Sequence record: OZ346158.1
Direction: 5' to 3' (one strand)
Length of the DNA: 64,000 nt
DNA from: a phage
The notes beneath the pieces were generated by a model. That model saw only the letters and a program-made list of their open reading frames with translations, made no database searches and was not told where the DNA came from. How positions within the stretch are numbered: position 1 is the first letter of the stretch; every line of letters begins with the position of its first letter. A program made the translations under genes and the position numbers. This document shows, in pieces, positions 5,119-24,197 of the stretch.

Positions 5119-5135
5119 TATCAGGAGACCTTAAG

Positions 5136-5381: not shown

Positions 5382-5464
5382 CAAATACCTATTGTAATTT
5401 ACAGAAGGGGATGCTAAAATAGTGTCTCCTTCTATGTTGTTCAAATAAAATCGGAGATTCCATA

Positions 5465-7696: not shown

Positions 7697-7711
7697 CATC
7701 TAGTTAACATA

Positions 7712-7739
7712 GCCCTGCCCGAAAGGGTGGGGCATTTTT
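7712..7739 (+). terminator. putative intrinsic terminator
   Basis: GC hairpin cccgaaaggg followed by TTTTT. Confidence 0.45.
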
Positions 7740-7758
7740 GTATAAGGAGATCTGAAAA

Positions 7759-8175: not shown

Positions 8176-8270
8176 CACAGGTTGAAAGGTGTGCAATTAT
8201 AACTTCATAGACGGGAGGACGTGATGAACGAAGAAAACTGGGATGTATAACTAACAGGAGGCCACTGCCC

Positions 8271-8468
8271 ATGATTTATCGAATCCGTGTAAGAGAAGAT
8301 GCACCAGGCTGTTACTTTGACTGGCGTGGGTGGTGGTTTCTCCACCCGATGGATGGACTCACAGATAGAATGCTGGATGCTGCCCTTTATACAGATACCG
8401 ACATAGAATATAATCTCTATCTGAAGGACGGTATAGATAACGGTCTATTTGAAGCAATTCCTGTGTAA
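8271..8468 (+). CDS. hypothetical protein
   Basis: ORF with SD caggaggcc. Confidence 0.5.
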   Translation: MIYRIRVREDAPGCYFDWRGWWFLHPMDGLTDRMLDAALYTDTDIEYNLYLKDGIDNGLFEAIPV

Positions 8469-8536
8469 GAGACTGTGATAGCCATGTTTTATGATCTTCC
8501 TGTAGCACCACCACCTGTTGAACCCGGAGAACTAAG

Positions 8537-8962
8537 ATGATCTATGAAATGCCAAAACTGATTCGTGATGATGCCCAAAACGCTCACACCATTATTATGG
8601 GCAAACGTATGGATATTATTTGTCATAAAGATTTCTGGGAAGGAAGTTACTTCACAGAGTATTTTGGTAAACTGGACAATGGTCTGCTGATCCAGTTCTA
8701 CACCGATGCGGAAAACAACATTCACTGGGAGTTCGAAACTGAAGATATCCATAAACTTTTCACCTTCCTCGGTATTAAGGTCGAGGCCAAGTTTGAAGAA
8801 GGTGAGTGCGACGATTGTGGATTCTATGAGGTAACAGATTTCTACCTTCCAAGTGGTAAAAATCTCTACTACGAAAGCCACTTCGGCAACTCAAATATGC
8901 CACAGGGTTGGGATGAGTTTTTGGAAATTGCAGAAGAGGAGCTGGAATACCGTGATTATTGA
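8537..8962 (+). CDS. hypothetical protein
   Basis: ORF with SD cggagaact. Confidence 0.55.
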   Translation: MIYEMPKLIRDDAQNAHTIIMGKRMDIICHKDFWEGSYFTEYFGKLDNGLLIQFYTDAENNIHWEFETEDIHKLFTFLGIKVEAKFEEGECDDCGFYEVTDFYLPSGKNLYYESHFGNSNMPQGWDEFLEIAEEELEYRDY

Positions 8963-9410
8963 TACTGTAAAGGGAGATCTAATCTCCATTTTCAAGAAAG
9001 GGTCAGGCCACATGATCCACGGTTGTAACTGCTTTCACACAATGGGTGCAGGTATAGCGAAAGATATTGCCCGTGAGTTCCCTCAAGCACTGGCAGCCGA
9101 CAAAGAGACTGCTTATGGTAATCTAGACAAGCTGGGTATGTTTTCTTGTTGGGAGCATTTTGCCAAGGCCAGGGTCGTATATGGAATCAACCTGTATACC
9201 CAGTTCTACCCAGGGCCCAATGCTGAATACTTCTCAATCATGAAAGGTTTTGAGCGAGTCAACGAGGTATTCAAAGGTATGTCATTGCCGTTCTACATTC
9301 CTAAAATCGGATGCGGTATTGGAGGTCTAAAGTGGAAACATGTAGAAGATGTAATTAATCTTGCAACCACAGATATTGATGTGGTTGTAGTAGAGTACAA
9401 AAAGTGTTGA
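8952..9410 (+). CDS. macro domain protein (ADP-ribose binding / ADP-ribosyl hydrolase-like)
   Basis: HGCNCFHTMGAGIAKDI resembles macrodomain N-A-N...G-G-G-V motif; about 150 aa; start codon (GTG 8952 or internal ATG) uncertain. Confidence 0.6.
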   Translation: MIIDTVKGDLISIFKKGSGHMIHGCNCFHTMGAGIAKDIAREFPQALAADKETAYGNLDKLGMFSCWEHFAKARVVYGINLYTQFYPGPNAEYFSIMKGFERVNEVFKGMSLPFYIPKIGCGIGGLKWKHVEDVINLATTDIDVVVVEYKKC

Positions 9411-11236: not shown

Positions 11237-11544
11237 TATTTTAAGTTATCAGATTGCCAGAGATCAGGAGGATTTCTAAAATGGATTTCCTCCTTTTGAT
11301 ATTTTACCTACCAGGATATTTTAAAATCCTTAGAAAATCAGAAAATGGATCGAAAACTAAAATGGATTTTTCAGAGCAGGCACGACGAGATGAACCACTC
11401 ATCCTATCGTCTGCACCATATTCCAGACCACCATTACAGATTTCCCGCACATGCTCACATCCTTCTACTAGAACTTCCCCCACTTACCCTTGACCTTTTA
11501 TAGTAATAATCCAACCACTACCTTGAAGTTGTGGCGCAGCTTTC

Positions 11545-11720
11545 CAAGTACTCGATCTGTTTTTCGTTTCAAAGATTTAATTTTCTGAAAATTTTTCTCG
11601 ATAAATTTCTCAGTACTCGATCTGTTTTTCGTTTTCTGAATCGGATTTTCTGGAAATCGTTCCGGCTCTCGACCTGAAATTTTTGGGGACGAAATCGATT
11701 TTTCGTTTTCAGAAATGGAT
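11545..11720. repeat. Direct repeats (25-nt unit cagtactcgatctgtttttcgtttt x2 plus degenerate copies) in non-coding region
   Basis: Identical 25-mers at 11545-11569 and 11611-11635; related atcgatttttcgttttc at about 11693. Confidence 0.8.
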
Positions 11721-11839
11721 TTTTAAAATTTCTATATGGGAATATTTTAGTGGATACTATTTTATAGGAAATTGTTACGGAGGGTAATTAGCGTGCTAAT
11801 TAAATTTATTAAATGCGAGGAGTTCTCATTTAGAATTTT

Positions 11840-12050
11840 GAATGATAATCATTCTCGTTTGCAGAATAACGGGCAGGCCCGGTGATTGTCTCCCGGCCCC
11901 TACTGCCCCGGCTTGTTATTATAGTAACACACAGGACAAAGAAAGCAAGAAGTTTTTGCATAAATTTTTAGACGATAATGATAATCGTTCTCATTTCATG
12001 CAGCGCCCATCCCCGGTGGTTGTCTCCCCCGTCACCGGTGCCTGCCGTCC
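11840..12050. repeat. Two direct copies of a ~60-bp unit (gataatc..ttctc..gcag ... ccggtgRttgtctccc)
   Basis: Units at about 11840-11901 and 11972-12048; the 16-mer ccggtgattgtctccc recurs inverted at 21016-21031. Confidence 0.75.
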
Positions 12051-12238
12051 TTTCAATAGGTATATTTTGCCACCTGGCGGGGCCGCTGTCAACACTTTTC
12101 AAAAAAAAAATTCTAACCTGATGCGCTGACCGCTGCAACCTGGCAGGGCCTAACTGACCAGGTAGGAGAGAATGAAGGCTTGCAAACCTGGTGGGCCTAT
12201 GCTATAGGATAGGTAACAATTGAAGAGGAGGTACAAAA

Positions 12239-12415
12239 ATGGAAGGTAATATGATCCCCCTGGAAAATGTAGCTATTAATGACGCTGAGGCTATCGCCCT
12301 GGTTGAAAAGGCTATGGCGGGAGCGTTGGAACATAAAGAAGAGTACGAAAAAATGGTGGTTAACCTGGCAGGGGCGGCGGCTGGAGAATTCTACCCAAAA
12401 AATAATTTTAACTAA
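12239..12415 (+). CDS. hypothetical small protein (58 aa)
   Basis: Strong SD gaagaggagg 8 nt before ATG. Confidence 0.5.
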   Translation: MEGNMIPLENVAINDAEAIALVEKAMAGALEHKEEYEKMVVNLAGAAAGEFYPKNNFN

Positions 12416-12418
12416 TGG

Positions 12419-12447
12419 TTGACAGCTCGGACAGTTCTTGTTATTCT
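12419..12447 (+). promoter_or_regulatory. sigma70-like promoter TTGACA-N17-TATTCT
   Basis: Read directly. Confidence 0.5.
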
Positions 12448-12500
12448 TATCCTCGCAAGGTGAACAACACCACACCAATTAACAGAGAGGATAAAAAATC

Positions 12501-12698
12501 ATGAACGCCTACGGAATTAAAGTACGTCGCAACACTCGCCAGGTGGTCACCAATCAAGTGATTTGCCGGGTGGATGTAACCATCAACAACGGGCAAGGCC
12601 TTTATAAATTTCGTCGCGGTCATAGCTATACCCTGCAACAGCTTAACCGTTGCGCCCTGACAAAAGGTCAGATCAACCACTGGTTTAATAAAAAATAA
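12501..12698 (+). CDS. hypothetical protein
   Basis: SD agagagga; basic small protein. Confidence 0.55.
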   Translation: MNAYGIKVRRNTRQVVTNQVICRVDVTINNGQGLYKFRRGHSYTLQQLNRCALTKGQINHWFNKK

Positions 12699-12700
12699 TG

Positions 12701-12729
12701 TTGACATAGGGTCTGACACAAAATACACT
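12701..12729 (+). promoter_or_regulatory. sigma70-like promoter TTGACA-N17-TACACT with A-rich upstream tract
   Basis: Read directly. Confidence 0.55.
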
Positions 12730-12761
12730 GAAATCACAAAAGACACTAAGAGGATAAAATC

Positions 12762-13160
12762 ATGAAAACCACTACCTTTAATTTTGATAATGCGGACTTT
12801 TCTTTTTCTGATGTCAAGAACTGCCGCCGTGATCGTGGATTTTACAAGGCTTATAATCTGGTGGGCCTGGACGATGACAATAATTTGCACGAAGTAGCTG
12901 AGATCCGGTATTATGCCGCCGCCAGTGGTAACACTCACTACTGCGTGTTTTGGATTCACGACAACAAGAACAATAAGTACGGTTATACTGGCGGCAAGGC
13001 GAGCGGTCACGGTTACGATAAAGCTAACGCAGCACTTGAGAGCGCATTAAATGCTATGGGGATCACTGCCGACGGCTGGATCTACGAAGAAGAGTTTTTG
13101 TCGGCACTTGCTGACCACCTGGGCTATAAAAAGCACATTGTGACATGCGCCCACGAATAA
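12762..13160 (+). CDS. hypothetical protein
   Basis: SD aagaggata. Confidence 0.55.
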   Translation: MKTTTFNFDNADFSFSDVKNCRRDRGFYKAYNLVGLDDDNNLHEVAEIRYYAAASGNTHYCVFWIHDNKNNKYGYTGGKASGHGYDKANAALESALNAMGITADGWIYEEEFLSALADHLGYKKHIVTCAHE

Positions 13161-13243
13161 AAATCATTGACACGCTGCAAAATTTAAGTAAACTAGACAC
13201 AAAAGGCGGGAATGTTTCCCGCCAGCACAAAGGAAAAAAGATC

Positions 13244-13639
13244 ATGAATAAGAACGTACGCCGCATCATGAACGAACTGGCAAACGATGAAAAAATTATT
13301 GACATGCATTTAGTCAACATTTGCCGCCGTTGTGTAACATATAACAACCGCGCCGCAAAAGCGCGTGAGATGAACGCAAAAGGCACCTTAAAGCCCTTTC
13401 AGGTGGTTGTAAAATCTATAACCAGTGCAGCAGGCCAGGCGCATGACCACAACAACGGGAGCACTAATATTGATCCGTCTTACGTAATGAAACGGATCCG
13501 GACTTGCAAGAATAAAGAGCAGGTGTATAATGTCATAGACTGGTTGGATTCTATGGGCGATGTGGTTTACAATAGGTTTTCTGCAGCTATCGAGATCCAG
13601 CTTGACAGGTTGGACGGTAAAGTACTGAAAACTTACTAA
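13244..13639 (+). CDS. hypothetical protein
   Basis: SD aaaggaaaaaag; preceded by promoter and 5' hairpin ggcgggaatgtttcccgcc. Confidence 0.55.
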   Translation: MNKNVRRIMNELANDEKIIDMHLVNICRRCVTYNNRAAKAREMNAKGTLKPFQVVVKSITSAAGQAHDHNNGSTNIDPSYVMKRIRTCKNKEQVYNVIDWLDSMGDVVYNRFSAAIEIQLDRLDGKVLKTY

Positions 13640-13686
13640 GATTATTTTTAGATGGCCTTGACTTCAGGGCCATCAATAAAGTAAAC
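13640..13686 (+). repeat. 47-bp conserved intergenic element, copy 1 (hairpin gatggcc/ggccatc)
   Basis: Identical to 14271-14317; near-identical to 18010-18058. Confidence 0.85.
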
Positions 13687-13719
13687 TAATCCCAGTTAAG
13701 CGAAAAAGGAGGCTTGAAG

Positions 13720-13839
13720 ATGAGCACTACACGCCAACACACAAAGGTAACGATTATCGTTTGCATCATTGGTTACATCCTGGCGCAAATGTTGATGGGT
13801 AGCGCCAATGATTTCGCAAAATTTTTCTTAGACTTTTAA
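13720..13839 (+). CDS. small hydrophobic protein (39 aa)
   Basis: SD aaaaggagg; TM-like IIVCIIGYILAQMLM. Confidence 0.4.
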   Translation: MSTTRQHTKVTIIVCIIGYILAQMLMGSANDFAKFFLDF

Positions 13840-13867
13840 TTGACAAGCTAACTTAAATCAGTATAAT
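13840..13867 (+). promoter_or_regulatory. sigma70-like promoter TTGACA-N16-TATAAT
   Basis: Perfect hexamers. Confidence 0.6.
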
Positions 13868-13919
13868 ACTAAGCACATAAACGGGAAAACTTCCCAGAAC
13901 ACCAAAAGGAGAAAACATT

Positions 13920-14270
13920 ATGAATACTTCCATCACTATGACCGCCGAAGAAAAAGCCCTGCAGATCGCCGCTCTGAAAAAACAGATTGCAGAACTTGAA
14001 GACAAGATCGACAATTTTGAAATCGACGAAGACAAGTACGACGATAAATATGATGAATGGTTAGACGAGATCTACGGCGAAATTATGATCGGAAACATTT
14101 CTTTTCTTCCGTCGCGTATCCTCAAGGAGCTAGATCCTATCGCTTACCGCTGCGGATTTAGCGACTACATCGACAGCCTGGATATTGAGGACGATGAAGA
14201 ATACCAGGAATTACAGACAGAGTTAGAAGAAGCAAAAGAAGAGCTTGCAGAACTGGAAGAAAACGAGTAA
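13920..14270 (+). CDS. highly acidic coiled-coil protein (candidate DNA mimic)
   Basis: D/E-rich throughout (EDKIDNFEIDEDKYDDKYDEW...DIEDDEEYQELQTELEEAKEELAELEENE). Confidence 0.55.
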   Translation: MNTSITMTAEEKALQIAALKKQIAELEDKIDNFEIDEDKYDDKYDEWLDEIYGEIMIGNISFLPSRILKELDPIAYRCGFSDYIDSLDIEDDEEYQELQTELEEAKEELAELEENE

Positions 14271-14317
14271 GATTATTTTTAGATGGCCTTGACTTCAGGG
14301 CCATCAATAAAGTAAAC
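14271..14317 (+). repeat. 47-bp conserved intergenic element, copy 2
   Basis: Exact repeat of 13640-13686. Confidence 0.85.
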
Positions 14318-14359
14318 TTTATACTGTTAACACTGAACTAATGCATAGGAGTTAAAACC

Positions 14360-14605
14360 ATGGCAGCACTAATCACCAAATATTATGCCCCTACCAACAC
14401 CAAAAGCGCCCGTATCATGGTAAAAGGCTTCGGACGTAAAAAGGTGTACACCTGGGATTATGCCTTAGACACGGAAGACAACTACACCAACGCGATGACC
14501 GATTTTATTAATGATCTGAACACGCGGATCTTGACAAATTATAAAATTACCGATATTGCCTATATAGGGGAAGGCGGGATCTGTTTTGTCGGTATCGTCA
14601 AATAA
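14360..14605 (+). CDS. hypothetical protein
   Basis: SD ataggagtt. Confidence 0.55.
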   Translation: MAALITKYYAPTNTKSARIMVKGFGRKKVYTWDYALDTEDNYTNAMTDFINDLNTRILTNYKITDIAYIGEGGICFVGIVK

Positions 14606-14680
14606 GCTGTTTTTTCGGTGGTCCTGGTAGCAGGGCCATCTATAAAGATAGTTTATCAATACAATGAAAGGAGAAAGTAC

Positions 14681-15034
14681 ATGATCAGCGGGGCAAGTTT
14701 TATTATTGGCGCTATTGCTACGGCTTTAATTGTAAACAAGATCCAATCTAAAAACGAAAAAGATAGCAACGCCCTTACAGAATACCCGTTTTGGGTATTC
14801 AACGACAATGAAGACTATATTATCAAGTACAAGAATGAGAAGGGCGACCAGGTAACACCTCGACCGATCCCGGCTTACAAGATGCAAGAAACACTATACC
14901 GCCTAAAGGCTGGAGGCGCAAAAATCGTAGACTTTTGGGGATACGATCACACAGATCAGGAAGTTATAAAGCGCCGTATCCGGGCTATTCAGGCCAATAT
15001 TGAAGTTAGCAAGGGGGGAATATATGAAGATTAA
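14681..15034 (+). CDS. hypothetical membrane-anchored protein
   Basis: SD gaaaggagaaag; N-terminal TM FIIGAIATALIV. Confidence 0.5.
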   Translation: MISGASFIIGAIATALIVNKIQSKNEKDSNALTEYPFWVFNDNEDYIIKYKNEKGDQVTPRPIPAYKMQETLYRLKAGGAKIVDFWGYDHTDQEVIKRRIRAIQANIEVSKGGIYED

Positions 15035-15221
15035 TTTTGAGAAGATTGTAAAGCGATCTCATGCTTCCGAAGAGCTGCCGGAACGCCGCCAGCGCAACAA
15101 TAAACTGAATAAGCCAAAAAGATTTGGGAAGATCTGGCGGAATCATTATGATCGCAAATTACCGGGCCTGCTTTTGGAACGTGAACGACAGGCGGAACGA
15201 TACCGCCACAAAGGCAAATAA
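15024..15221 (+). CDS. small basic protein
   Basis: SD aaggggggaa; Arg/Lys-rich. Confidence 0.45.
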   Translation: MKINFEKIVKRSHASEELPERRQRNNKLNKPKRFGKIWRNHYDRKLPGLLLERERQAERYRHKGK

Positions 15222-15230
15222 CAACCAACG

Positions 15231-15256
15231 CCCCGCCATTGTGCGGGGCTTTTTAT
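15231..15256 (+). terminator. intrinsic terminator
   Basis: gccccgc-cattg-tgcggggc followed by TTTTTATTT. Confidence 0.7.
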
Positions 15257-15403
15257 TTCTATCCTACAAATAGCGCCCCTGGTTGGCCCTGTAAGCGCCA
15301 AAAAGGCCCCACCTATGCAATCGCCCCCCCTTTAACCTGAAAACATCGCTTAGGGCCGTTTTATGGCGTTAAAAATATCATTGACAGTGATTTTATTTAA
15401 AGC

Positions 15404-15431
15404 TTGACATCTTAAACAGGTTAGCTATACT
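15404..15431 (+). promoter_or_regulatory. sigma70-like promoter TTGACA-N16-TATACT
   Basis: Read directly; a second TTGACA lies 23 nt upstream. Confidence 0.55.
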
Positions 15432-15463
15432 AACCACATCAAAGAGAGAAAGGAGTAAACGCC

Positions 15464-15724
15464 ATGCGTAAATTAAAAAATTTTGATAAAGTTGATGTTG
15501 TCCTGAATAATTTTTACTACTGCAACAACAAGGCCATTTGGTGGCGTGATAGTTCCACCGATAAAGTCAAGGCGCGCTTTCTCCAGGGGCACTGGCAAGG
15601 CCGCCCAGTGATTAAAATCATGGGGCAATTGGTAGCGTTTAAAAATTGCCGCCGTGTTGATGACGTTGAAGAGATCTTGAATATTTTACGCCACAATAAT
15701 TTAAAAAATAGTGTTGACAAGTAA
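15464..15724 (+). CDS. hypothetical protein
   Basis: SD gaaaggagtaaacg. Confidence 0.55.
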   Translation: MRKLKNFDKVDVVLNNFYYCNNKAIWWRDSSTDKVKARFLQGHWQGRPVIKIMGQLVAFKNCRRVDDVEEILNILRHNNLKNSVDK

Positions 15725-15741
15725 ATCTCAATAAGTATACT
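15714..15741 (+). promoter_or_regulatory. sigma70-like promoter TTGACA-N16-TATACT, followed by 5' hairpin ggcgggaagttttcccgcc
   Basis: Read directly. Confidence 0.55.
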
Positions 15742-15798
15742 TAAGCACACAGGCGGGAAGTTTTCCCGCCACTAACAAAGAAAATAGGAGAAAATATC

Positions 15799-16422
15799 AT
15801 GACCACCGTTAACATTACCACAGGTTGCAATTTATCTTTCGACGTGCTGACCGACGAACAAAAAGAAAAAGCTATTGAAATGGTCCGCGAAAGAGAAGAA
15901 CACAGCGGAGAGGATTTTTTCGCAGAAAGTGTAATTGAATATTATAAAGAACAAGTTTTTCCAGAGTACGGCCTTGAAGATACCGATGTACATTGGTCCG
16001 GCTTTTGGTGTCAAGGCGATGGCGCGTCAATTAATGCTGAAAATGTAGACTTAGAGAAATTCTTGCGTAAAGTCAAGGCCCTGACCAAGTTCCGATCAAT
16101 TCGTCACTTGTTCGGCACAATGCACGATGGCGAACTATCAGCCAGTGTTGAACGCGACAAGTACAGCCATTACAGCCATGAAAACACTGTAAGCGGATAT
16201 ATTGATACTACCTGGCTAGATCTGACCGCAAAACAAGAAAATAAAGTAGAAGATCTGGAAGAGCTGATCACCGAGACGGTACGGGAGCTATCCCGCAAGG
16301 TTTATGTAGACCTGGAGGAGGCCTATCTTGAACAGTTTACTACCGAAAACCTGATCGGCCTTATTGAAGCCAATGATTGGCGGTTTGATGTGGATGAATA
16401 TGGAGAAATGAGTTTTTCATAA
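15799..16422 (+). CDS. hypothetical acidic protein
   Basis: SD aataggagaaa; 207 aa, E/D-rich. Confidence 0.55.
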   Translation: MTTVNITTGCNLSFDVLTDEQKEKAIEMVREREEHSGEDFFAESVIEYYKEQVFPEYGLEDTDVHWSGFWCQGDGASINAENVDLEKFLRKVKALTKFRSIRHLFGTMHDGELSASVERDKYSHYSHENTVSGYIDTTWLDLTAKQENKVEDLEELITETVRELSRKVYVDLEEAYLEQFTTENLIGLIEANDWRFDVDEYGEMSFS

Positions 16423-16513
16423 ATAAAGTGTTGCAATAATCTAAAAACCTGCTATATTAAAACTTAAGGGGGAGAGATGACTTGCCCCCACACAAAACAA
16501 AGAGGAAAACATC

Positions 16514-16894
16514 ATGAAAAACACTACTAAAGCTATTGACACCGTTATGTTTAACCTGGTTACATTCCGTGAAGATATGAAAGATCTTCCACGTGAAACA
16601 GTGTGCGACCATATCGAAAACTATCGCAAACTAATCAAAGAGTTGCCTTTAAAACGTGACCAGTACGCGGCTAACGCTATGCTTAACGCCATGATCAAGA
16701 AAATGATTCAGTGCGATTTGACTTTAGCTTATGATTATGCAGGTGGTCGTTTTGCAGTATACAATCAGCCCGTGCCTGGTATGAGCACCACAGAAGAATT
16801 GCACGCGTTAAATCTAAAACAAGACGTATGGGATAACATGCCCCGCGTGGTGGTGTGGGCAGAAAGCGGAAAGATTTACGGCGATAATTTTTAA
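16514..16894 (+). CDS. hypothetical protein
   Basis: SD agaggaaaac. Confidence 0.55.
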   Translation: MKNTTKAIDTVMFNLVTFREDMKDLPRETVCDHIENYRKLIKELPLKRDQYAANAMLNAMIKKMIQCDLTLAYDYAGGRFAVYNQPVPGMSTTEELHALNLKQDVWDNMPRVVVWAESGKIYGDNF

Positions 16895-16958
16895 TCAGGT
16901 AACAGGCGGCATATTTGCCGCCTTATTGTTAAACAGAACTGCAAAAGAGGTACATAGA

Positions 16959-17330
16959 ATGGAATTTATTATTTTGGCTGTAGTAGTTGCCTTGTTCAAC
17001 GCCTGGATCGCTGGCAAGATAGGTAGATCCGCTTTTCTATGGTTTGTTATATCTATTTTCCTGGGAGTGGTTGCAACTATTGTATTGGTTATCCTTGCAA
17101 TTGTTGACAAGGGGAATAATAGAAAGGGTAAAGTATTTTCAGACCTGTACGACGCTCAAACGTTTGTCAACGCCTATTATAGTGATCTTCCAGTCTCCCT
17201 ACGTTGCAGCCTTGCACAACAGGTTTTCGATGAAGCTAAAACCAGAGATCACGCCCATGAGATTTGTTTAACTGAGGCGGATCGCCTATTTGAGAGGAAT
17301 AGAAAATATGTGGACCAGCCGTTTAAATAA
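16959..17330 (+). CDS. membrane protein (2 TM)
   Basis: FIILAVVVALFNAWIA and LWFVISIFLGVVATIVLVILAIV. Confidence 0.5.
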   Translation: MEFIILAVVVALFNAWIAGKIGRSAFLWFVISIFLGVVATIVLVILAIVDKGNNRKGKVFSDLYDAQTFVNAYYSDLPVSLRCSLAQQVFDEAKTRDHAHEICLTEADRLFERNRKYVDQPFK

Positions 17331-17547
17331 TGCCACGTTAATTAACCCCTTTAGTGAAGATTTGAAGCCAGCCGCCTGGCGGGATGGATTCAATAACGAA
17401 AGCTTTATTTTCAGGCCTGATCTTAAGGAATTTTATAACAATGGATCGAACAACGACAGAGATAATTTTTCTTGTAATGTGCGTGGTGATAATACTCCTG
17501 GGGGCCATTGCAAACCACGTCACTGCTAACAGGAGGAAAGGGGAGAC

Positions 17548-17668
17548 GATGACACCCAAGGATAAGCCCCGTACCGATAAGGCGCGCCGTGTTATGGTAT
17601 GGCTTGAGATCATCGCCCTTGAAATATTGTTAGGCGTAGGGATGTATTTTATCGCTGTAAGTAATTGA
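17548..17668 (+). CDS. small membrane protein
   Basis: SD aacaggaggaaagggg; TM VMVWLEIIALEILLGVGMYFIAV. Confidence 0.4.
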
Positions 17669-17808
17669 TAACGGCCCCGATCCCTGGGGCCTAACTTTTC
17701 AAATTTTTTTCTCCCTGAGTGTTGCAATCCGATCCAGAATATGGATAATAACAATCAACGGGGAGACACTCCCCACCGCATAGACAAAGTTCCAAAAGGA
17801 GAAACAAA

Positions 17809-18009
17809 ATGAGCAACAATATCCGCGTTATTAACTTCAAAAAAGAAGAAAAAATTGCCGTGCTGATTGACGGTCAAGAAATCTTTAAAGGTGATTATGA
17901 AGATCATCAAACGGCGATTAGTATCACTCGCGTGATTGGTTACCATAATTTTTACCCTCAAGGCGCTGAGGCAGCAGTAAAACGAATTAAAGAGATTGTA
18001 GGCCTGTAA
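17809..18009 (+). CDS. hypothetical protein
   Basis: SD caaaaggagaaac. Confidence 0.55.
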   Translation: MSNNIRVINFKKEEKIAVLIDGQEIFKGDYEDHQTAISITRVIGYHNFYPQGAEAAVKRIKEIVGL

Positions 18010-18058
18010 AATTTATTTTTAGATGGCCTTGACTCCAGGGCCATCAATAAAGTAAATT
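18010..18058 (+). repeat. conserved intergenic element, copy 3 (2 mismatches)
   Basis: tttttagatggccttgactccagggccatcaataaagtaaa. Confidence 0.8.
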
Positions 18059-18100
18059 TAAACCCTGTTAAAATAATCAGTGCAAAAAGGAGTAATGATC

Positions 18101-18400
18101 ATGTTTATCCAGGCTAATAATCTTTATTTCTTTGATGGTCAGATCGTAGACGGCGTGGAGGTGGAAATCACCGGGTGCCCTGGCGGTCAGGTTATGACTT
18201 TTCGGAATAATGCCTTTGATGATTCTCATATCGTTATGAGAATGGAAGTTAGTAAGCTGGATGACAAGAAAACACTCATTGATTATTCCGTGAAAGATCA
18301 TCCAGACTACCACATGATCTATGGTGATTTGTGCATTGTTGACCGTGACAAGGTGGGCGGCATTGTGATCGCTATTGTGAACGATGTTTTCTCAAACTAA
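18101..18400 (+). CDS. hypothetical protein
   Basis: SD aaaaaggagtaatg. Confidence 0.5.
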   Translation: MFIQANNLYFFDGQIVDGVEVEITGCPGGQVMTFRNNAFDDSHIVMRMEVSKLDDKKTLIDYSVKDHPDYHMIYGDLCIVDRDKVGGIVIAIVNDVFSN

Positions 18401-18417
18401 TTTCAGCAGGTGATTTT

Positions 18418-18768
18418 ATGAAAGTAAAACTATATTACCTTAATGAGCTTAACCCCCTTGCCCAGGTCCGCGCCATGGCTAATACCTTGATTTGTGAGAA
18501 ATCTGTATATTGTGTTGAGCTTAACTCCATGCGTGAACGTCTCAAAGGTGGTTACTTTGACATCCATGCTGCAATCAACGGCCTGAATATGGAATTTATC
18601 CGCTTACGTAACAGCCGCCAGAATCTGGGAAGAATGGAACAAGATCCGGCCCACCTTCGTAAGCTGGTTATTGAAAATCATCTAATGTTTAATGCCGATG
18701 GTGATTATTACCATTTTCACCGTAAACGCTGGTACCGTAGCGGCAATATAGGAAAGAATGCAAAATAA
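18418..18768 (+). CDS. hypothetical protein
   Basis: ORF. Confidence 0.5.
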   Translation: MKVKLYYLNELNPLAQVRAMANTLICEKSVYCVELNSMRERLKGGYFDIHAAINGLNMEFIRLRNSRQNLGRMEQDPAHLRKLVIENHLMFNADGDYYHFHRKRWYRSGNIGKNAK

Positions 18769-18976
18769 GGCCCCTGGCAGGGCCTGCAGCGATATAATCA
18801 CATAAAGGCTATGCGGTTGCATAGCCTTTATTATTTTGGCGTTACAGCGGCCCCCAAGGCGCTTAAAAAAATTTTTAAAGAAGTACTTGCATCAAGTCCT
18901 ACAATATGGATAATAAAGGGTGTCGGGGGGGCGGTGAGGCCTCCAATCATTAACCGGATAGATAGGAGTTAAAACC

Positions 18977-19261
18977 ATGGCTATTGTTACCGTTGGCGAT
19001 GTAGTAGAAATGGAAGCCAAATACTTAAAAGCTGGTATGCATATCATACGGAATGATCAAGAATTGTTATTAACCATGGTTGAATATAATCCCGGTCAGG
19101 ATTATCCAAGCATTGACTACTTTTTCCAGTATGTTGATGAAGAATTAAAAGAGGATGAGGCTTATCAGGGTGAATTTTGTAATTTCTTTTGCCCTGATGA
19201 GGTTGTAAAAGTTATCTATCAACCTGGCGTACCTTTCCCGCTGCACGCTATCAACAAATAA
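18977..19261 (+). CDS. hypothetical protein
   Basis: SD gataggagtt. Confidence 0.55.
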   Translation: MAIVTVGDVVEMEAKYLKAGMHIIRNDQELLLTMVEYNPGQDYPSIDYFFQYVDEELKEDEAYQGEFCNFFCPDEVVKVIYQPGVPFPLHAINK

Positions 19262-19316
19262 ACCTGGCGGGGCCGAAAAGGCCCCCAATTATGAAAATAA
19301 AGAGAGGCAAATCATC

Positions 19317-19550
19317 ATGATGGAACAAATTAAACGCGCCGAGGCTATTAATGGCAACGTGATCTATTTTGTCAGCAAAAACGAAAAAGGCGTACCCTAT
19401 GCGGCGGTAATAGTACAGCCTGACGGCGATTATTGGTGTACTGTGTACGGCGCTTATTCTTTTGGGCGTCCAGTGCATGATAAAATTTTGAAAGTAGCGA
19501 ACCCTACCGGGAAAAATATCACAGCAGAAAAATTTTTTGAAAATAGTTGA
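19317..19550 (+). CDS. hypothetical protein
   Basis: SD aagagaggcaaa. Confidence 0.5.
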   Translation: MMEQIKRAEAINGNVIYFVSKNEKGVPYAAVIVQPDGDYWCTVYGAYSFGRPVHDKILKVANPTGKNITAEKFFENS

Positions 19551-19621
19551 CATGACCATATAAGACTGTAGTATATAAATCAAAGGGGCAAGCCCCACCA
19601 ACCACAAAGAGGATAAAAATC

Positions 19622-19801
19622 ATGGCTATTATTGCAAAGACTGAGATCGTAGGCTTGGATTCTATTCTCCTCGCATATGAGGAAGCTATAGAAATGTATG
19701 TGGTTTCCTATGGTGAGTATATCCGTGAATATAAATCTATTGATCTGGCTTTTGAATGTTATATTCGCCAGGTTAATAAAGCGTACGATGATTATCGTTA
19801 A
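19622..19801 (+). CDS. hypothetical small protein
   Basis: SD aaagaggataaaaat; downstream of promoter at about 19547. Confidence 0.45.
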   Translation: MAIIAKTEIVGLDSILLAYEEAIEMYVVSYGEYIREYKSIDLAFECYIRQVNKAYDDYR

Positions 19802-19891
19802 AATAGTTTGAAAACAAACAACCATCTTACAAAGCATAATACATAAGGCGGTGGAATGGTCCGCCACCTGGAACAAGAAGAGGAAAACAAA

Positions 19892-19996
19892 ATGAAACAG
19901 AAATTAATTGATGCGGTGATCCTGGTTATTGCCCTGGGTATTGGCCTGATTGCAACCATGGCTAATGTGATCTTGTCTTCCAACGGTATCGGGTGA
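19892..19996 (+). CDS. small single-TM protein (34 aa)
   Basis: SD aagaggaaaac; AVILVIALGIGLIATMA. Confidence 0.35.
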   Translation: MKQKLIDAVILVIALGIGLIATMANVILSSNGIG

Positions 19997-20311
19997 GGTT
20001 GGCAAATGATCACTAACAAAACAGGCAAGCGGAATTTTTACTCAACTTACAGATCGGCAAGCCTGAGATCTGGTATTGCACTAAAACACCACGTGACGAA
20101 ATGAAAGACTTCACCGCCACGCTGCAACGGGTAAAGATATCCATCACGCAGAAAAAGGCCTTGATAGTGGTGGAAGGTGAGATCCCTCAAACCGTTGTTA
20201 TAGTTGAGCGTACAGCATAGTTTAATTTATACCGATACCCGAAAATTAACCAACAAAGCATAAACAGGCGGTTACCGCCGCCTTAAACGTAGCAGAAAGA
20301 GGATAGACACA

Positions 20312-20596
20312 ATGAAAAAGATGATCGCAGTGGTTGCCCTGGTTGTTGGACTTAATGCGCCTGTAATGGCTAAAGAGCTGGCAAAAGAGGTTAATCTAAC
20401 GGATATTCATGCCGTCAATCGAATCGGGGTTACTTATCGCTTATGCCTTGCCGCTAAAACTTTTAAGGACGGCACGACAGAGTACTACGGATTCGAAGGT
20501 GTCCGGTGCGGTGAACTTGCTCGCGACCTTAAGGAAGATCCAGACCTGGAGGATCTGCCCATCACCGTAAACGGGAAAACTTACGTAAACCGTTAA
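20312..20596 (+). CDS. secreted/periplasmic small protein
   Basis: Signal peptide MKKMIAVVALVVGLNAPVMA. Confidence 0.55.
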   Translation: MKKMIAVVALVVGLNAPVMAKELAKEVNLTDIHAVNRIGVTYRLCLAAKTFKDGTTEYYGFEGVRCGELARDLKEDPDLEDLPITVNGKTYVNR

Positions 20597-20744
20597 CCAT
20601 GATAAAGATAATCATCACCTTGGCATCGTGGCGGGATCGCTGGCGCTCTTTCTCCTTATGGTTAGGTATGTGCTGATCGGTATTGTCCTGGTAGTCAGTG
20701 ATCTATTGGAAACGGTTGGCACCTTGTTTTAAAGAGCGGTAAAA

Positions 20745-20936
20745 ATGAATATCGAACAAGTTAGAAAGGTATTGGCGGTACTGCGTTATCATAATCATAG
20801 AAAGGTCATAGACGATCCTGATTATGTCGATTCAAGCCTGGAAGGGGATACACTACAAGCCATAAGTAACATGCAAGAATTGCTAAAGCGCATGACAGAG
20901 AAAAACCGACCGGACTACATAGGCGAAAAAATATAA
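20745..20936 (+). CDS. hypothetical protein
   Basis: ORF followed by terminator hairpin at about 20955. Confidence 0.5.
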   Translation: MNIEQVRKVLAVLRYHNHRKVIDDPDYVDSSLEGDTLQAISNMQELLKRMTEKNRPDYIGEKI

Positions 20937-21015
20937 TCCTTATAAACTACAAAACAGGGCTTGCAATGGTCCTGTTTTTTGTTATACTTGTTTCACGGCA
21001 GGCGCCTGGCGACGG

Positions 21016-21031
21016 GGGAGACAATCACCGG
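21016..21031 (-). repeat. inverted copy of 16-mer ccggtgattgtctccc (extended similarity 20996-21035)
   Basis: Exact reverse complement of 11879-11894; about 85 percent match to 12014-12048. Confidence 0.8.
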
Positions 21032-21063
21032 GTGTGCCTGCTATATAAAAACTATAAAAACCG

Positions 21064-21092
21064 TTGACATCTGCCAGGTGGTGGGGTAGCAT
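21064..21092 (+). promoter_or_regulatory. sigma70-like promoter TTGACA-N17-TAGCAT
   Basis: Read directly. Confidence 0.5.
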
Positions 21093-21147
21093 TTATCTCG
21101 AAGGGGGCAAAAGCGCCCACACAACAACCGGAAGAGAGGAAAACGCC

Positions 21148-21420
21148 ATGTTAAGCTGGATTAACCAAGAAGTTGAATCACGTTTCAATGCTATTTGGGA
21201 TCTCATCGAAAAAGAGGACGGAACATCAAGCCCTTATCTCAATAATCTTGAATTCCATTTCGTGGAAGCGATGAACGCAGAACATGATCACGAAGGTGGT
21301 GCGGATGAATTCGCTAAAGGATATGGCTTCAACAATGCCAACGAAATGATCGAGGCGGTTGTACTCCAGGCTGAGGAAGATTATCAATTAAAAACGCTTG
21401 AATTCTGCCGCCGTAAGTAA
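21148..21420 (+). CDS. hypothetical protein
   Basis: SD aagagaggaaaacg. Confidence 0.5.
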   Translation: MLSWINQEVESRFNAIWDLIEKEDGTSSPYLNNLEFHFVEAMNAEHDHEGGADEFAKGYGFNNANEMIEAVVLQAEEDYQLKTLEFCRRK

Positions 21421-21482
21421 TAAGATAATGACACGGGCCAAAAGGCCCACTAAACAAAAACCACATAAAGAGGAAAAACATC

Positions 21483-21746
21483 ATGAAACGTCTTGATCAG
21501 CTCAAATTAGTTCAATATATGGCTTATCGTGTTCTTGAAGTCCAGAAAGGTAGCAAAAAAGAGGTTTGCGAGAAAGCTTATAAGATCTTCACTCGCAAAA
21601 AAGATGATTGGATGTTACGCCAGACCAAAAAAGCCGATATCTTGGGGTACCTGGAAGAAGAGATCCGGCTTGAAGAGCAAGAAGAGATCCGCCGCAGTGA
21701 GGCAGATTATCAGGCAGCTTGGGAAAACTGGATGAATAACAAATAA
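21483..21746 (+). CDS. hypothetical protein
   Basis: SD aaagaggaaaaac. Confidence 0.5.
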   Translation: MKRLDQLKLVQYMAYRVLEVQKGSKKEVCEKAYKIFTRKKDDWMLRQTKKADILGYLEEEIRLEEQEEIRRSEADYQAAWENWMNNK

Positions 21747-21812
21747 TACAACAAGTTACATGGTCAGGGGCAATAAAGCCCCTTGATCACATAAAAATTA
21801 TGCCATCCTTGG

Positions 21813-21841
21813 TTGACAGGGATCGGCAGTTTTGCTATATT
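21813..21841 (+). promoter_or_regulatory. sigma70-like promoter TTGACA-N17-TATATT
   Basis: Read directly. Confidence 0.55.
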
Positions 21842-21890
21842 CTTTTTTGAAGGGAAGTTGTAAGAAAATTAACTAAGAGGTAAAAACACC

Positions 21891-22310
21891 ATGAACATTA
21901 AATCTAATAATCCGGCATATAGCTTTGATAACGCTTTTTGTCACGGTCCGGCGGCGAAAGGATTCGAAATCGATGGTAAACTAGTTATTGTCAATGTTGA
22001 CGGGGAAGAGGTTGCAGTATATCCGGTGGCAGACGTTAAAAGCCGTCTACAATGCCGCATCGATGTTACCGCCTACCAGCTTGATCCGGTCCGGGTAGTT
22101 GCCCTGGTCCTGGAAGAAGAAATTAAAGCAATGCACCACAGCAACAAGTTTATTGGTGACGCTCAAGATAATATGAAGGTGTGCCGCCATAAAGTTAATG
22201 AAGTGCTTAAAGAATATGGCTTTAAAGATCTGATGATCAAACGTGAGGAAAAATTCCGCTACCGTAACGACCTGGCAAATCGGATTTTTGAAATATACGA
22301 ATCATTATAA
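21891..22310 (+). CDS. hypothetical protein
   Basis: SD taagaggtaaaaac. Confidence 0.55.
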   Translation: MNIKSNNPAYSFDNAFCHGPAAKGFEIDGKLVIVNVDGEEVAVYPVADVKSRLQCRIDVTAYQLDPVRVVALVLEEEIKAMHHSNKFIGDAQDNMKVCRHKVNEVLKEYGFKDLMIKREEKFRYRNDLANRIFEIYESL

Positions 22311-22328
22311 TTTCTTAACTGAATTATC

Positions 22329-22356
22329 AAGGGGCTTAAAGGCCCCTTTCTTTTTG
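22329..22356 (+). terminator. intrinsic terminator closing the + strand block
   Basis: aaggggc-ttaaag-gcccctt followed by TCTTTTTG. Confidence 0.7.
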
Positions 22357-23123
22357 TCTGCTCTTCTCCTACCATAAACGGCCCTACCTGGCAAGTGGAA
22401 TAATTGACTAGCCATCAATCCCACATACTGTACAAATATACATGGAAAATAACTATTGCATAATTTTTCATTGTGTGGTAGCAAGTCCATTTTTACCCGT
22501 TTTCTCTCCCAAAAGTGCACGTAATGCCGCTATTGCACAAATTTTAACCTGATGCACATCTCCAATATCTTGTCAACAACTAAAAATCTTTATAAGTCAT
22601 ACACTTACACAGCATCGAAAGCGTGTTCTACGCGAAAAATCGAGTATAACTATAGCCGCCAGATCTCAGAATTCACGTACGCACGCCATTCTATAGCCTG
22701 CAAAGTATTTATTCCAACCACAGAATAACGGAATAGTCAATACCTGCATAAAATAATTATTCGTGTAAACTGCATAACATAAATCAGCTCAGGTGTCAAC
22801 ATTTTTCGTAAACAGTCCGAAATTATCACGATGAGTTATCATAAACAGAGAAATCTTTAGTCGTCTAATGTTTACTGTACATTACTATACTGACTGGAAT
22901 CATTAGATGACTAATACAATAGAACAAATTAATAATGTAATTATTTTACCTGTAACAATAAGGCAACTATGCAAACGAATGGCATGGCGCGACGGAGTCG
23001 CGACATAATATAAAAGCAGTAACCATCACCCCCGTGATAGTTTGTCTGCAAACTATTAATCAGATCATAGTTGCCTTGTATTTAGTTAATCATGACATAA
23101 CAAGCAAGGCAACTATAGATATA

Positions 23124-23381
23124 CTAAACCATAGCTTCAAAAGGAGTCATGAACGAATAAACGGCATCATCATCTGCTTCAGGGAATGCTCCCAAAGACT
23201 TCATATCTGAACCCTTGACAAATACAAGGTTTTGATCAAAGGCTTCTTGGGGGTCAATCCGATACATATTTCGTAGAATATCGCTTACCTCCTCATCAAG
23301 AGGTGAGTATGCTGTGCACGTTTTTCCGATCAAGCTTTGAGAATCAGGGTATCCACCTGAAGTTTTAAAATAAACAATCAT
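23124..23381 (-). CDS. hypothetical protein
   Basis: ORF at end of - strand block. Confidence 0.5.
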   Translation of the reverse strand: MIVYFKTSGGYPDSQSLIGKTCTAYSPLDEEVSDILRNMYRIDPQEAFDQNLVFVKGSDMKSLGAFPEADDDAVYSFMTPFEAMV

Positions 23382-23879: not shown

Positions 23880-24197
23880 TCATTTTCCAAAGTCAATCTT
23901 TACTTTGCCTTTCCCCTTACCTTTCTTTCCACCGCATTTAGCCAGCTGACGTGCTGCAACATCTACCATACGGTCAGTTGCCTCGTAAGCATCACTACCT
24001 TTAGCCTTGGCAATAACTTCTTTTCCAGAATTGTCAAAAATGAACGCCATAACTTCCTGGTGATCATTTTCAACTTTTACACTCACACGTGCATAGTTGG
24101 CAGAGGGGTGCAAACGCTCCAGTTTAGACATTTTGTTGGAAATGAAAGACACCATACCTTCAGTGATTTCTACGTTGCCAGTGATTTCAATTTGCAT
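23880..24197 (-). CDS. ribosome hibernation promoting factor / RaiA (S30AE family) homolog
   Basis: MQIEITGNVEITEGM...KLERL...VSVKVE and ...GSDAYEATDRMVDVAARQLAK closely parallel bacterial HPF (MQLNITGNNVEITEAL...KLARQL). Confidence 0.8.
   Translation of the reverse strand: MQIEITGNVEITEGMVSFISNKMSKLERLHPSANYARVSVKVENDHQEVMAFIFDNSGKEVIAKAKGSDAYEATDRMVDVAARQLAKCGGKKGKGKGKVKIDFGK

Follow-up and report, generated by a model that had tools for sequence, protein, structure and literature searches.

A probable early region of small genes in a Vequintavirus, its promoters and stem-loop cassettes, and a protein family shared with plasmids

Background

Promoter-early stem-loop (PeSL) cassettes are known from the hyperplastic regions of T4-type phages. 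Lying between ORFans, each combines an AT-rich tract and a strong promoter of sigma70-like type with a Shine-Dalgarno sequence and a GC stem-loop whose position varies (PMC2839356, PMC4122927). Genes are shuffled by way of these cassettes, and their stem-loops reduce read-through transcription (Arbiol et al. 2010, PMC2839356; Comeau et al. 2014, PMC4122927). A literature search found no report of PeSLs in the Vequintavirinae. Here we describe a block of 30 small genes, g01 to g30, at positions 12239-22310 of a 64,000 nucleotide (nt) stretch of phage DNA (OZ346158.1; hereafter the window), which is probably the distal half of the early and accessory ('hyperplastic') region of a Vequintavirus, at the end of a + strand unit that abuts the reported genome terminus.

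The closest described counterparts of this block are open reading frames (ORFs) 164-198 of phage rV5 (NC_011041; PMC3606486) and bas51_0105-0133 of phage WalterGehring (Bas51), which have the same genes, order and promoters at 92-98% identity. Relative to rV5, the window has g18 and lacks ORF166, contains one frameshifted gene, and is without ~6.3 kb just beyond the block. The rV5 paper reported 33 sigma70-type promoters and 20 terminators and proposed four transcription units (Kropinski et al. 2013, PMC3606486), and the CB7 paper describes the same promoter family in other Vequintavirinae, gathered among short hypothetical ORFs, as putative early promoters. The architecture of the block is therefore not new, since the rV5 record already annotates promoters in it and the Murica record terminators; what is new here is that a Vequintavirus contains PeSL-like cassettes, how large and how widely spread the family of g11 is, and several small oddities.

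Two further systems invite comparison. Like the class I early region of T7 (genes 0.3-1.3) and the pre-early region in the terminal repeat of T5, the block is a set of small genes beside a genome end that host RNA polymerase would transcribe; its g09 is homologous to T7 gene 1.1, and as a T5-type likeness a homologue of g11 lies in the terminal repeat of a jumbo phage. It differs from T7 in having many single promoters in place of three tandem promoters with RNase III processing, and in being transcribed toward the terminus. Family scans found no homologue of Ocr, gp0.7, A1, A2 or Dmp among the block proteins. As to the defences that such genes might meet, one study calls Vequintavirinae 'exceptionally susceptible' to restriction-modification (RM) systems, describes them as without effective protection, and reports type I systems as weak on most phages, while a 2026 study found vequintaviruses to be restricted by Druantia III and ARMADA II.

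Results

Genome setting and gene content

Nucleotide comparison identifies the window as a Vequintavirus (rV5-like myophage) whose closest relatives are all ~137 kb Vequintavirus genomes. The block has matches in 209 phage records, 80 of which cover at least 80% of it; identity is 97.9% over 100% of the block for Bas51 and 98.3% for JohannBauhin, and reaches 99.9% across 13100-16600 for JeffSchatz. All 30 genes are orthologous, with synteny kept, to the annotated coding sequences (CDSs) bas51_0105-0133, with the exception of g16, for which Bas51 carries no annotation. Every one of these CDSs is labelled 'hypothetical protein' bar a single 'putative holin'.

The + strand unit runs from rIIA/B through helicase, methyltransferase, primase and DNA polymerase genes into small ORFs, and converges on a - strand unit (RNA ligase, ligase, endolysin, NrdAB/NrdDG, ThyA, ClpP) that likewise passes into small ORFs. 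GC skew changes sign at ~22 kb, in agreement with this convergence of strands. From the surrounding annotation and the skew we take 12239-22310 to be the distal half of the + strand small-gene array, its left boundary being arbitrary; the same small-gene architecture is found upstream to ~2.7 kb, and on the - strand from ~23.1 kb. The reported terminus of Bas51 directly follows bas51_0133 (g30, window position 22310), so the block abuts the physical genome end and is transcribed toward it. Just beyond, Bas51 93900-94725 corresponds to window 22299-23120 and Bas51 101112 onward to window 23127 onward. Because the Bas51 matches jump at 23121-23127, ~6.3 kb is absent from the window, comprising the rest of the reported terminal region and the small genes bas51_0134-0150. 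This junction is spanned by 0 of 150 related phage records and sits in a repeated AACTAT..ATAGTTGCC motif; it reflects either a deletion or a join made during assembly at the terminus of the genome.

ORF reading and protein mapping to Bas51 bear out an earlier sequence-only reading of this DNA as an array of small genes, here 30 + strand ORFs of 32-207 codons (Table 1). ATG is the start codon in 29 of the 30, and an AGGAG/GAGG Shine-Dalgarno sequence stands 6-10 nt upstream in nearly all. Intergenic DNA makes up 2,268 of 10,072 nt, and the usual gap between genes is 55-91 nt.

Membrane, secretion and charge assignments of the products were made from sequence composition and hydropathy alone. 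On this basis several products are predicted membrane or secreted proteins, as the sequence-only reading had it: transmembrane (TM)-length hydrophobic segments occur in g05, g08, g13, g15, g22 and g26, and a Sec-type signal peptide in g25, seven products in all. The two products singled out earlier for acidity are indeed acidic. In g06 (116 amino acids, aa) 37 D+E residues (32%) stand against 10 K+R, for a net charge of -27 and an isoelectric point (pI) of 4.05; g11 (207 aa) has 22% D+E, a net charge of -26 and a pI of 4.43. Acidic composition extends to g17, g19, g21 and g28, and g02, g04, g09, g10 and g18 are strongly basic.

Scans against Pfam, NCBIfam and PADLOC matched none of the proteins except g09, and the PHROGs that were matched are all of unknown function; PDB sequence searches with g03, g04, g12 and g30 were empty. 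The statement that no product has a recognisable enzymatic motif thus holds for known families (Pfam, NCBIfam, PADLOC, PHROGs) and fails for g11, which carries an invariant polar motif, GFWxQGDGA ... YxHE. The exception among the scans, g09, belongs to the T7 gene 1.1 family (PF08200; 41.2 bits against a gathering cut-off of 21, E 2.3e-10), and the Murica record likewise labels its ortholog 'T7 gp1.1-like'. In T7 itself, gene 1.1 is among the class I early genes. The 'putative holin' label that Bas51 gives the ortholog of g13 was rejected as unsupported, since the gene has weak matches alone and its place in the block is a long way from the endolysin. In one place the window departs from an intact gene: g23/g24 is a single 71-codon gene, the counterpart of bas51_0126 (71 aa), with a frameshift near codon 8. 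The ortholog of bas51_0128 (20598-20732) is out of register with Bas51 at its N-terminus. Both may be true pseudogenisation or sequencing indels.

Promoters and transcription units

Sigma70-like promoters are strongly enriched on the coding strand. In a scan of 12139-22350, with 300 dinucleotide shuffles as the expectation, 11 sites on the + strand match the consensus at 10 or more of 12 positions, against 2.06 +/- 1.46 expected (0/300 shuffles reach 11), and the - strand has none; four + strand sites match at 11 or more positions, against 0.11 expected. Among them is the TTGACA-N16-TATAAT promoter noticed previously at 13840, which is present at 13840-13867 with 12/12 matches.

Sites of at least 9/12 end 15-75 nt before the start codon of 14 of the 30 genes (g02-g07, g10-g12, g16, g17, g21, g28 and g30), and ~4 additional genes have 8/12 promoter-like sites in the same geometry. 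An A-tract followed by TGTTGAC recurs before g03 and g11, with a TGTTGCA version before g12. The sequence-only reading had placed each gene behind a promoter and called the genes monocistronic; both claims are overstated, because eight genes (g09, g14, g15, g18, g23, g24, g26, g27) overlap or closely trail their neighbour (gaps of -23 to +22 nt) with no promoter, and are coupled to it in mini-operons. The 30 genes would then form about 18-20 transcription units.

Seven sigma70-type promoters are annotated in the block and its upstream flank in the rV5 RefSeq record (NC_011041), and four coincide with sites called here: P192 with the 13840 promoter of g06, P186 with the site before g10, P168 with that before the stem-loop element at 20961-21060, and P164 with the 21813 promoter of g30. 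P195A lies roughly at the g03 promoter, and P205 and P195B lie upstream of the block. The promoter pattern in CB7 and rV5, the T7 gene 1.1 homologue and the adjacent Bas51 terminus together make early timing of the block a reasonable inference. Across the whole 64 kb, sites of at least 10/12 are nearly perfectly co-oriented with the genes (+ at 1-22 and 56-64 kb, - at 24-56 kb) and also precede genes of nucleotide metabolism and replication; it seems that the phage depends on host-type promoters well outside the small-gene block.

Stem-loops and repeated cassettes

Of the 21 intergenic regions that measure 50 nt or more, 12 contain a perfect GC-rich hairpin (at least 4 G-C pairs), where shuffled sequences give 0.96 +/- 0.92; further imperfect hairpins were seen. 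They fall into three classes. The first is a hairpin followed by a T-run and comprises ordinary terminators, at 15230-15249, 18802-18831 and 22329-22348, the last of which closes the block. Hairpins of the second class stand 20-35 nt before the ATG of g04, g06, g11, g13, g20, g21, g25, g28 and g29, have no U-tract and carry an A-rich stretch on their 5' side; where a promoter is present they are downstream of its -10 box, which would place them in the first ~10-30 nt of the transcript. The third class is a 51-nt cassette in four copies (13637, 14268, 14603, 18008; 69-100% identity) whose 7-bp stem encloses the -35 hexamer TTGACT. The leaders of g04, g06 and g11 also resemble one another. Rfam contains no family for any stem-loop.

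When the window is compared with Bas51, rV5 and Murica, the stems show no change and the loops vary (GTT to AAC before g11, CCC to ATG at 17673, with a change in the g16 loop as well), which is consistent with selection on pairing. The Murica record annotates stem-loops as terminators. Several stem-loops of the window, read on the - strand, are a hairpin with a T-rich tail. Since most have no U-tract and lie downstream of a -10 box, most are unlikely to be classical terminators of the upstream gene. We infer that they insulate transcription units from one another, or alternatively that they block antisense transcription; they may also stabilise mRNA 5' ends.

Two gene-sized indels separate the block from that of rV5. 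On each side of ORF166, the gene that rV5 has in addition, lies a direct repeat of the 5' leader (ACTAATCA.AAC..ACCACA.AAAGAG), the pattern expected of cassette-mediated exchange; rV5 lacks g18 through a plain deletion with no flanking cassette repeats. An apparent 1.5-kb insertion in many relatives was discarded as an artefact of repeated cassettes joined by BLAST.

The likeness to T4-type PeSLs thus lies in the composite architecture, in the repeated cassettes and in one indel flanked by cassette repeats, and several rV5 + strand small-gene ORFs have been noted as similar to RB49 ORFs, ORF167 alone of these lying inside 12239-22310. The differences are that the host of these cassettes is another phage subfamily, that the cassette sequences are unrelated, that many stem-loops here lie downstream of the -10 box in the 5' leader, and that they are known here solely as sequence.

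A further repeated element joins a promoter to a GC-rich stem-loop of ~45 nt and occurs in three copies: 20961-21060 (+), 11985-12092 (-) and 11850-11961 (-). The copies hold an invariant 17-mer, GGGAGACAAYCACCGGG (3 matches against 0.02 expected), which in an unrelated viral contig of 46.8 kb also stands twice after a TATAAT box. The Bas51 annotation treats them as CDSs of a 29-aa class, and they have no ribosome-binding site (RBS); the element at 20961-21060 is more likely non-coding than a 29-aa CDS, and because of the missing RBS the three copies may be small RNAs or protein-binding sites. Their consensus fold across paralogues is weak, and Rfam has no family for the element.

Palindromes resembling Fur boxes were seen at 11974-11992, 11843-11857 and 20601-20619 (3 in the window against 0.03 expected), with 2 mismatches to GATAATGATAATCATTATC at 11974-11992 and 3 at 20601-20619; two of the palindromes directly follow stem-loop elements on the - strand. 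Iron control by Fur, or titration of Fur, would be unusual for a virulent phage.

A model of the block and its chief competitor

We propose the following sequence of events. At DNA entry the unmodified host sigma70 RNA polymerase would fire the ~18-20 promoters found here, each composed of an A-tract, a (TG)TTGACA -35 hexamer, a spacer of 16-17 nt and a TAnAnT -10 hexamer, and would do so early. Given the observed spacing of genes and the strong RBS before each, the products would be short mono- to tri-cistronic mRNAs. The GC-rich stem-loops, round the -35 hexamer or 20-35 nt before the ATG, would insulate these units by attenuating read-through and antisense transcription, and would probably stabilise the 5' ends. 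Stem-loops and conserved leaders together resemble PeSL cassettes, and recombination at them would add or remove single genes, with which one indel is consistent. Judged by composition, the ~30 products would be small effectors directed at the host or at competitors: the seven membrane or periplasmic ones are candidates for envelope remodelling or superinfection exclusion, the very basic ones, including the T7 gp1.1 homologue, may bind nucleic acid, and several others are very acidic. The earlier suggestion of a host-takeover and anti-defence architecture stands in so far as the block matches the proposed early region of the subfamily; its anti-defence half leans on g11, whose homologues lie in plasmid regions with SSB, antirestriction and methyltransferase genes.

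Several observations weigh against this model. Transcription runs toward the terminus, not away from it. The promoters do not single out the block, because similar ones occur throughout the non-structural 64 kb. A literature search found no vequintavirus transcriptome or transcription start site map (nor any vequintavirus anti-defence genes), so that early timing is at most probable. The four stem-loop sequence sets (window, Bas51, rV5, Murica) are too alike to contain compensatory base changes in the stems. Only one of the two indels available against rV5 is bounded by cassettes, and gene content is well kept across the genus, so that with 2 indels over 10 kb the block is less plastic than classical anti-defence islands. 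The broad sensitivity to RM, Druantia III and ARMADA II argues against potent counter-defence to those systems. Finally, 29 of the 30 proteins have no assignable function.

That last observation equally suits the competing explanation that survives best, one we nonetheless regard as improbable: that the block is mostly dispensable ORFan cargo, made of selfish or neutral cassettes kept by recombination at promoters and stem-loops, the stem-loops being ordinary terminators. The window does without ~6.3 kb of adjoining small genes found in every related record, one of its genes (g23/g24) is frameshifted, g18 is absent from rV5, and the Murica annotators called the stem-loops terminators. Set against these points, gene order and sequence are 90-98% conserved in at least 80 phage records isolated worldwide, strong RBSs and near-consensus promoters are maintained across the block, the g06 and g11 families are conserved in distant phage groups, and most stem-loops have neither the U-tract nor the position, relative to the -10 box, of such terminators.

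The g11 family

Within the proposed early region, g11 would be, through guilt by association, the best candidate for a function in DNA entry or counter-defence. Its close homologues are in vequintaviruses, followed at ~60% identity by homologues in the ~350-kb Asteriusvirus jumbo phages. A profile search of 1.84 billion cluster representatives returned 6,504 matches at E <= 1e-3, of which 4,144 at E <= 1e-10, for a family of more than 6,500 clusters at 50% identity; a second profile search gave more than 5,142 clusters at 90% identity, none with a Pfam domain. Nearly all members are stand-alone proteins of 185-215 aa, and the names seen among them are 'hypothetical protein' or 'antitoxin of toxin-antitoxin stability system'. 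Neither Pfam nor NCBIfam has a model for g11 itself, and no solved fold matches it significantly; PDB searches by sequence and by profile were empty, and a BFVD fold search returned uncharacterised phage proteins alone. Positions G58, G68, F69, Q72, G73, D74, G75, A76, Y125, H127, E128, T130, R162 and Y169 are invariant or nearly so, which suggests a catalytic or ligand-binding site.

Homologues of g11 were found by tblastn on 19 alphaproteobacterial plasmids, and 12 of the 20 plasmid records matched are typed as conjugative; the hhalign probability is 99.8%. Their gene neighbours include SSB, ParD/ParE, DUF932, two RadC, DUF6878, an 'antirestriction protein', a methyltransferase, a strawberry-notch/methylase-helicase, and several toxin-antitoxin or abortive-infection (Abi) modules. 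This is the gene set described for the 'anti-defence islands' of plasmid leading regions, in which orphan antitoxins are also enriched. The likeness is in the company that g11 homologues keep on conjugative plasmids (SSB, ParDE, antirestriction, orphan methyltransferase and helicase genes); the differences are that the g11 family is not a named anti-defence family, and that its placement on plasmids is known from gene neighbours, not from the position of oriT.

In the Asteriusvirus vB_Ec-M-J the g11 homologue, EcMJ_006, is the sixth gene in a 21.5-kb direct terminal repeat. It belongs there to an array (1760-8987) of ~80-aa genes ~85 nt apart, an architecture like that of 12239-22310.

A more speculative reading, which we would put at clearly less than even chances, is that g11 represents a very large, unnamed family of mobile-element proteins that acts at DNA entry, as a counter-defence or establishment factor or as an enzyme, and, separately, that PeSL-like cassettes shuffle single genes in Vequintavirus early regions. 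Much less likely is that g11 is an orphan antitoxin that neutralises a host toxin or abortive-infection effector, possibly of Fic/Doc type. PGAP and UniRef do label its alphaproteobacterial homologues as antitoxins, as quoted above, and orphan antitoxins are enriched in plasmid leading regions. A g11 homologue adjoins a Fic-family 'mobile mystery protein B' in two plasmids, and one 1,479-aa metagenomic protein joins an N-terminal Fic domain to a g11-like domain at 777-958, in a genomic context that was uninformative. The RefSeq antitoxin label was rejected as evidence, being traceable to no model or experiment: there is no Pfam match for g11 or the plasmid homologue, no NCBIfam match for g11 or a metagenomic homologue, and no experiment was found. 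Both plasmids with a Fic neighbour represent one syntenic context, in which the Fic gene already has its own partner gene, and two other plasmid contexts have no Fic neighbour. No toxin gene lies beside g11 in the phage, and the protein, with its 207 aa and invariant Q, D, H and E, resembles an enzyme or a ligand-binding protein more than it does a typical small antitoxin.

The acidic protein g06

The sequence-only reading had proposed g06 (13920-14270) as a candidate DNA mimic. Homologues occur in vequintaviruses and then in phages of Vibrio, Providencia, Proteus, Pseudomonas, Serratia and Microbacterium; none was found on plasmids. The family alignment gives a core of the form YDEWLDE-YG-I-IG--SF-PSRILKELDPIAYRCGF-DY-DS, with L68, E70, D72, A75, Y76 and G79 invariant, together with P73 and R77: a compact and mostly non-acidic core. 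On its N-terminal side stands an amphipathic helix and on its C-terminal side an E-rich one; both helices are low in complexity and vary in length. An AlphaFold model (predicted local distance difference test, pLDDT, 87; predicted template-modelling score, pTM, 0.63) has two long terminal helices and a small helix/beta-hairpin domain. Neither the single sequence nor the family profile matched any PDB chain up to E = 5, and comparison of the predicted fold with solved structures returned generic helical hairpins alone and no solved DNA mimic.

The protein is comparable with Ocr (T7 gp0.3) and ArdA in size, net charge and early position, with 116 aa, 37 acidic and 10 basic residues and a pI of 4.05, a size and charge like those of Ocr; its gene has the strongest promoter of the block, the protein is predicted to be helical, and its acidity is kept in all homologues as E/D-rich arms of variable length. 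Even so, that g06 is an Ocr/ArdA-like mimic, a polyanionic dimer that would occupy, early in infection, the groove with which type I restriction, BREX or other DNA-binding proteins of the host contact DNA, is the least probable of the readings considered here, because charge is the sole protein trait it has in common with them, sequence and fold matches to any solved mimic are absent, the conserved part is non-acidic while the acidic arms are low-complexity and variable, the family is missing from plasmids, and the phage group is reported, in the RM study cited above, to be exceptionally RM-sensitive. Composition, alignment and the predicted model show g06 as an acidic coiled-coil protein built round a conserved globular core, and it more likely binds a specific host protein through that core than serves as a general DNA mimic.

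Other features of the window

Just upstream of g01, three tandem repeats of 65-74 nt (11538-11723), each with GTACTCGATCTGTTTTTCGTTT, lie in a stretch of ~1 kb without convincing genes; they could be iterons, binding sites or small transcripts. On the - strand at 23880-24197, among the small genes of the converging block, is a phage homologue of the HPF/YfiA family of ribosome hibernation or sigma54-modulation proteins, according to the annotation of BASEL relatives. An unusually long (97-99 nt) tRNA-like gene at 61212-61310 (+), in a cluster of 7 tRNA genes, is given a 4-base anticodon by ARAGORN, scores 35.5 bits in Rfam and is annotated as tRNA-Lys in Bas51; it may hold an intron or be an atypical tRNA.

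Table 1. Genes, promoters, stem-loops and terminators of the block, in window coordinates
Feature	Position	Strand	Description
g01	12239..12415	+	58 aa, acidic, pI 4.4, phrog_21957
g02 promoter	12419..12447	+	TTGACA-N17-TATTCT, 10/12, TG-extended, sigma70-like
g02	12501..12698	+	65 aa, very basic, pI 11.0
g03 promoter	12701..12729	+	TTGACA-N17-TACACT, 10/12, A-tract on 5' side
g03	12762..13160	+	132 aa; no PDB, Pfam or NCBIfam match
g04 promoter	13167..13194	+	TTGACA-N16-TAAACT, 10/12
g04 leader stem-loop	13205..13223	+	GC-rich, 8-bp, GGCGGGAA-TGT-TTCCCGCC, 20 nt before ATG
g04	13244..13639	+	131 aa, basic, pI 9.5
Cassette copy 1 (before g05)	13637..13687	+	51 nt: T-tract, stem GATGGCC/GGCCATC, -35 TTGACT in loop, -10 TAAACT
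g05	13720..13839	+	39 aa, single TM segment
g06 promoter	13840..13867	+	TTGACA-N16-TATAAT, 12/12, = rV5 P192
g06	13920..14270	+	116 aa, acidic; conserved core between variable acidic, predicted coiled-coil arms; family in phages only
Cassette copy 2 (before g07)	14268..14318	+	51 nt, 100% identical to copy 1
g07	14360..14605	+	81 aa
Cassette copy 3 (before g08)	14603..14653	+	diverged, 69% identity; Murica annotation: terminator
g08	14681..15034	+	117 aa, N-terminal hydrophobic anchor
g09	15024..15221	+	65 aa, basic, pI 11, 11-nt overlap with g08; PF08200
Rho-independent terminator	15230..15249	+	GCCCCGC-N6-GCGGGGC then TTTTTATTT
g10 promoter	15404..15431	+	TTGACA-N16-TATACT, 11/12
g10	15464..15724	+	86 aa, basic
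g11 promoter	15714..15741	+	TTGACA-N16-TATACT, 11/12, overlaps end of g10
g11 leader stem-loop	15752..15770	+	8-bp GC stem; stem invariant, loop variable in four phages
g11	15799..16422	+	207 aa, net -26, GFWxQGDGA + YxHE
g12 promoter	16431..16458	+	TTGCAA-N16-TATATT, 9/12, TG-extended; then stem-loop GGGGG...CCCCC
g12	16514..16894	+	126 aa
Stem-loop between g12 and g13	16904..16923	+	AGGCGGC-ATATTT-GCCGCCT; terminator in Murica annotation
g13	16959..17330	+	123 aa, two N-terminal TM helices
g14	17308..17529	+	73 aa, 23-nt overlap with g13 (translationally coupled)
g15	17549..17668	+	39 aa, TM
g16 promoter	17722..17749	+	TTGCAA-N16-GATAAT, 9/12; then GGGGAG-ACA-CTCCCC at ~17760-17774
g16	17809..18009	+	66 aa, phrog_12347, no Bas51 annotation
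Cassette copy 4 (before g17)	18008..18058	+	51 nt, 90% identity
g17	18101..18400	+	99 aa, acidic
g18	18418..18768	+	116 aa, basic, deleted in rV5
Terminator	18802..18831	+	13-bp stem then TATTTTGG
g19	18977..19261	+	94 aa, acidic, net -11
g20	19317..19550	+	77 aa; stem-loop GGGGCC-GAAAA-GGCCCC 31 nt upstream
g21 promoter	19547..19574	+	TTGACA-N16-TAGTAT, 10/12; then stem-loop GGGGC-AA-GCCCC
g21	19622..19801	+	59 aa, acidic
g22	19892..19996	+	34 aa, TM, smallest intact gene
g23/g24	20006..20220	+	bas51_0126 ortholog, frameshifted
g25	20312..20596	+	94 aa, Sec-type signal peptide MKKMIAVVALVVGLNAPVMA/KE, probably periplasmic
g26	20619..20732	+	~34-44 aa, TM; start uncertain (N-terminus unlike Bas51)
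g27	20745..20936	+	63 aa
Stem-loop element	20961..21060	+	TTGCAA-N16-TATACT then 45-nt GC-rich stem-loop, core GGGAGACAATCACCGGG
g28 promoter	21064..21092	+	TTGACA-N17-TAGCAT, 10/12; then stem-loop ~21103-21120
g28	21148..21420	+	90 aa, acidic, net -12; rV5 ortholog (ORF167) noted similar to phage RB49 hypothetical protein
g29	21483..21746	+	87 aa; rV5 has extra ORF166 just upstream
g30 promoter	21813..21841	+	TTGACA-N17-TATATT, 11/12, TG-extended, = rV5 P164
g30	21891..22310	+	139 aa, last gene of + strand unit
Rho-independent terminator	22329..22348	+	AAGGGGC-TTAA-AGGCCCCTT then TCTTTTTG; closes block; reported Bas51 terminus region begins here

Conclusions

rV5-like phages are among the most commonly isolated phages of E. 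coli and are candidates for phage therapy, and about a quarter of their genome consists of small genes of unknown function. Dropping the DNA-mimic lead narrows the search for functions in this block. The regulatory grammar described here, of host-type promoters, leader stem-loops and repeated cassettes, offers reusable parts and predicts sites of gene exchange. The g11 family, present in thousands of phages and plasmids and, where its place has been mapped, sited close to the DNA-entry ends, makes a high-yield target when screening for counter-defence or establishment functions. Should g11 prove to act in anti-defence, phage early regions and plasmid leading regions would be linked by a common and previously unnamed gene family; and if PeSL-like shuffling does operate in Vequintavirus, the mechanism would reach beyond the T4-type phages.

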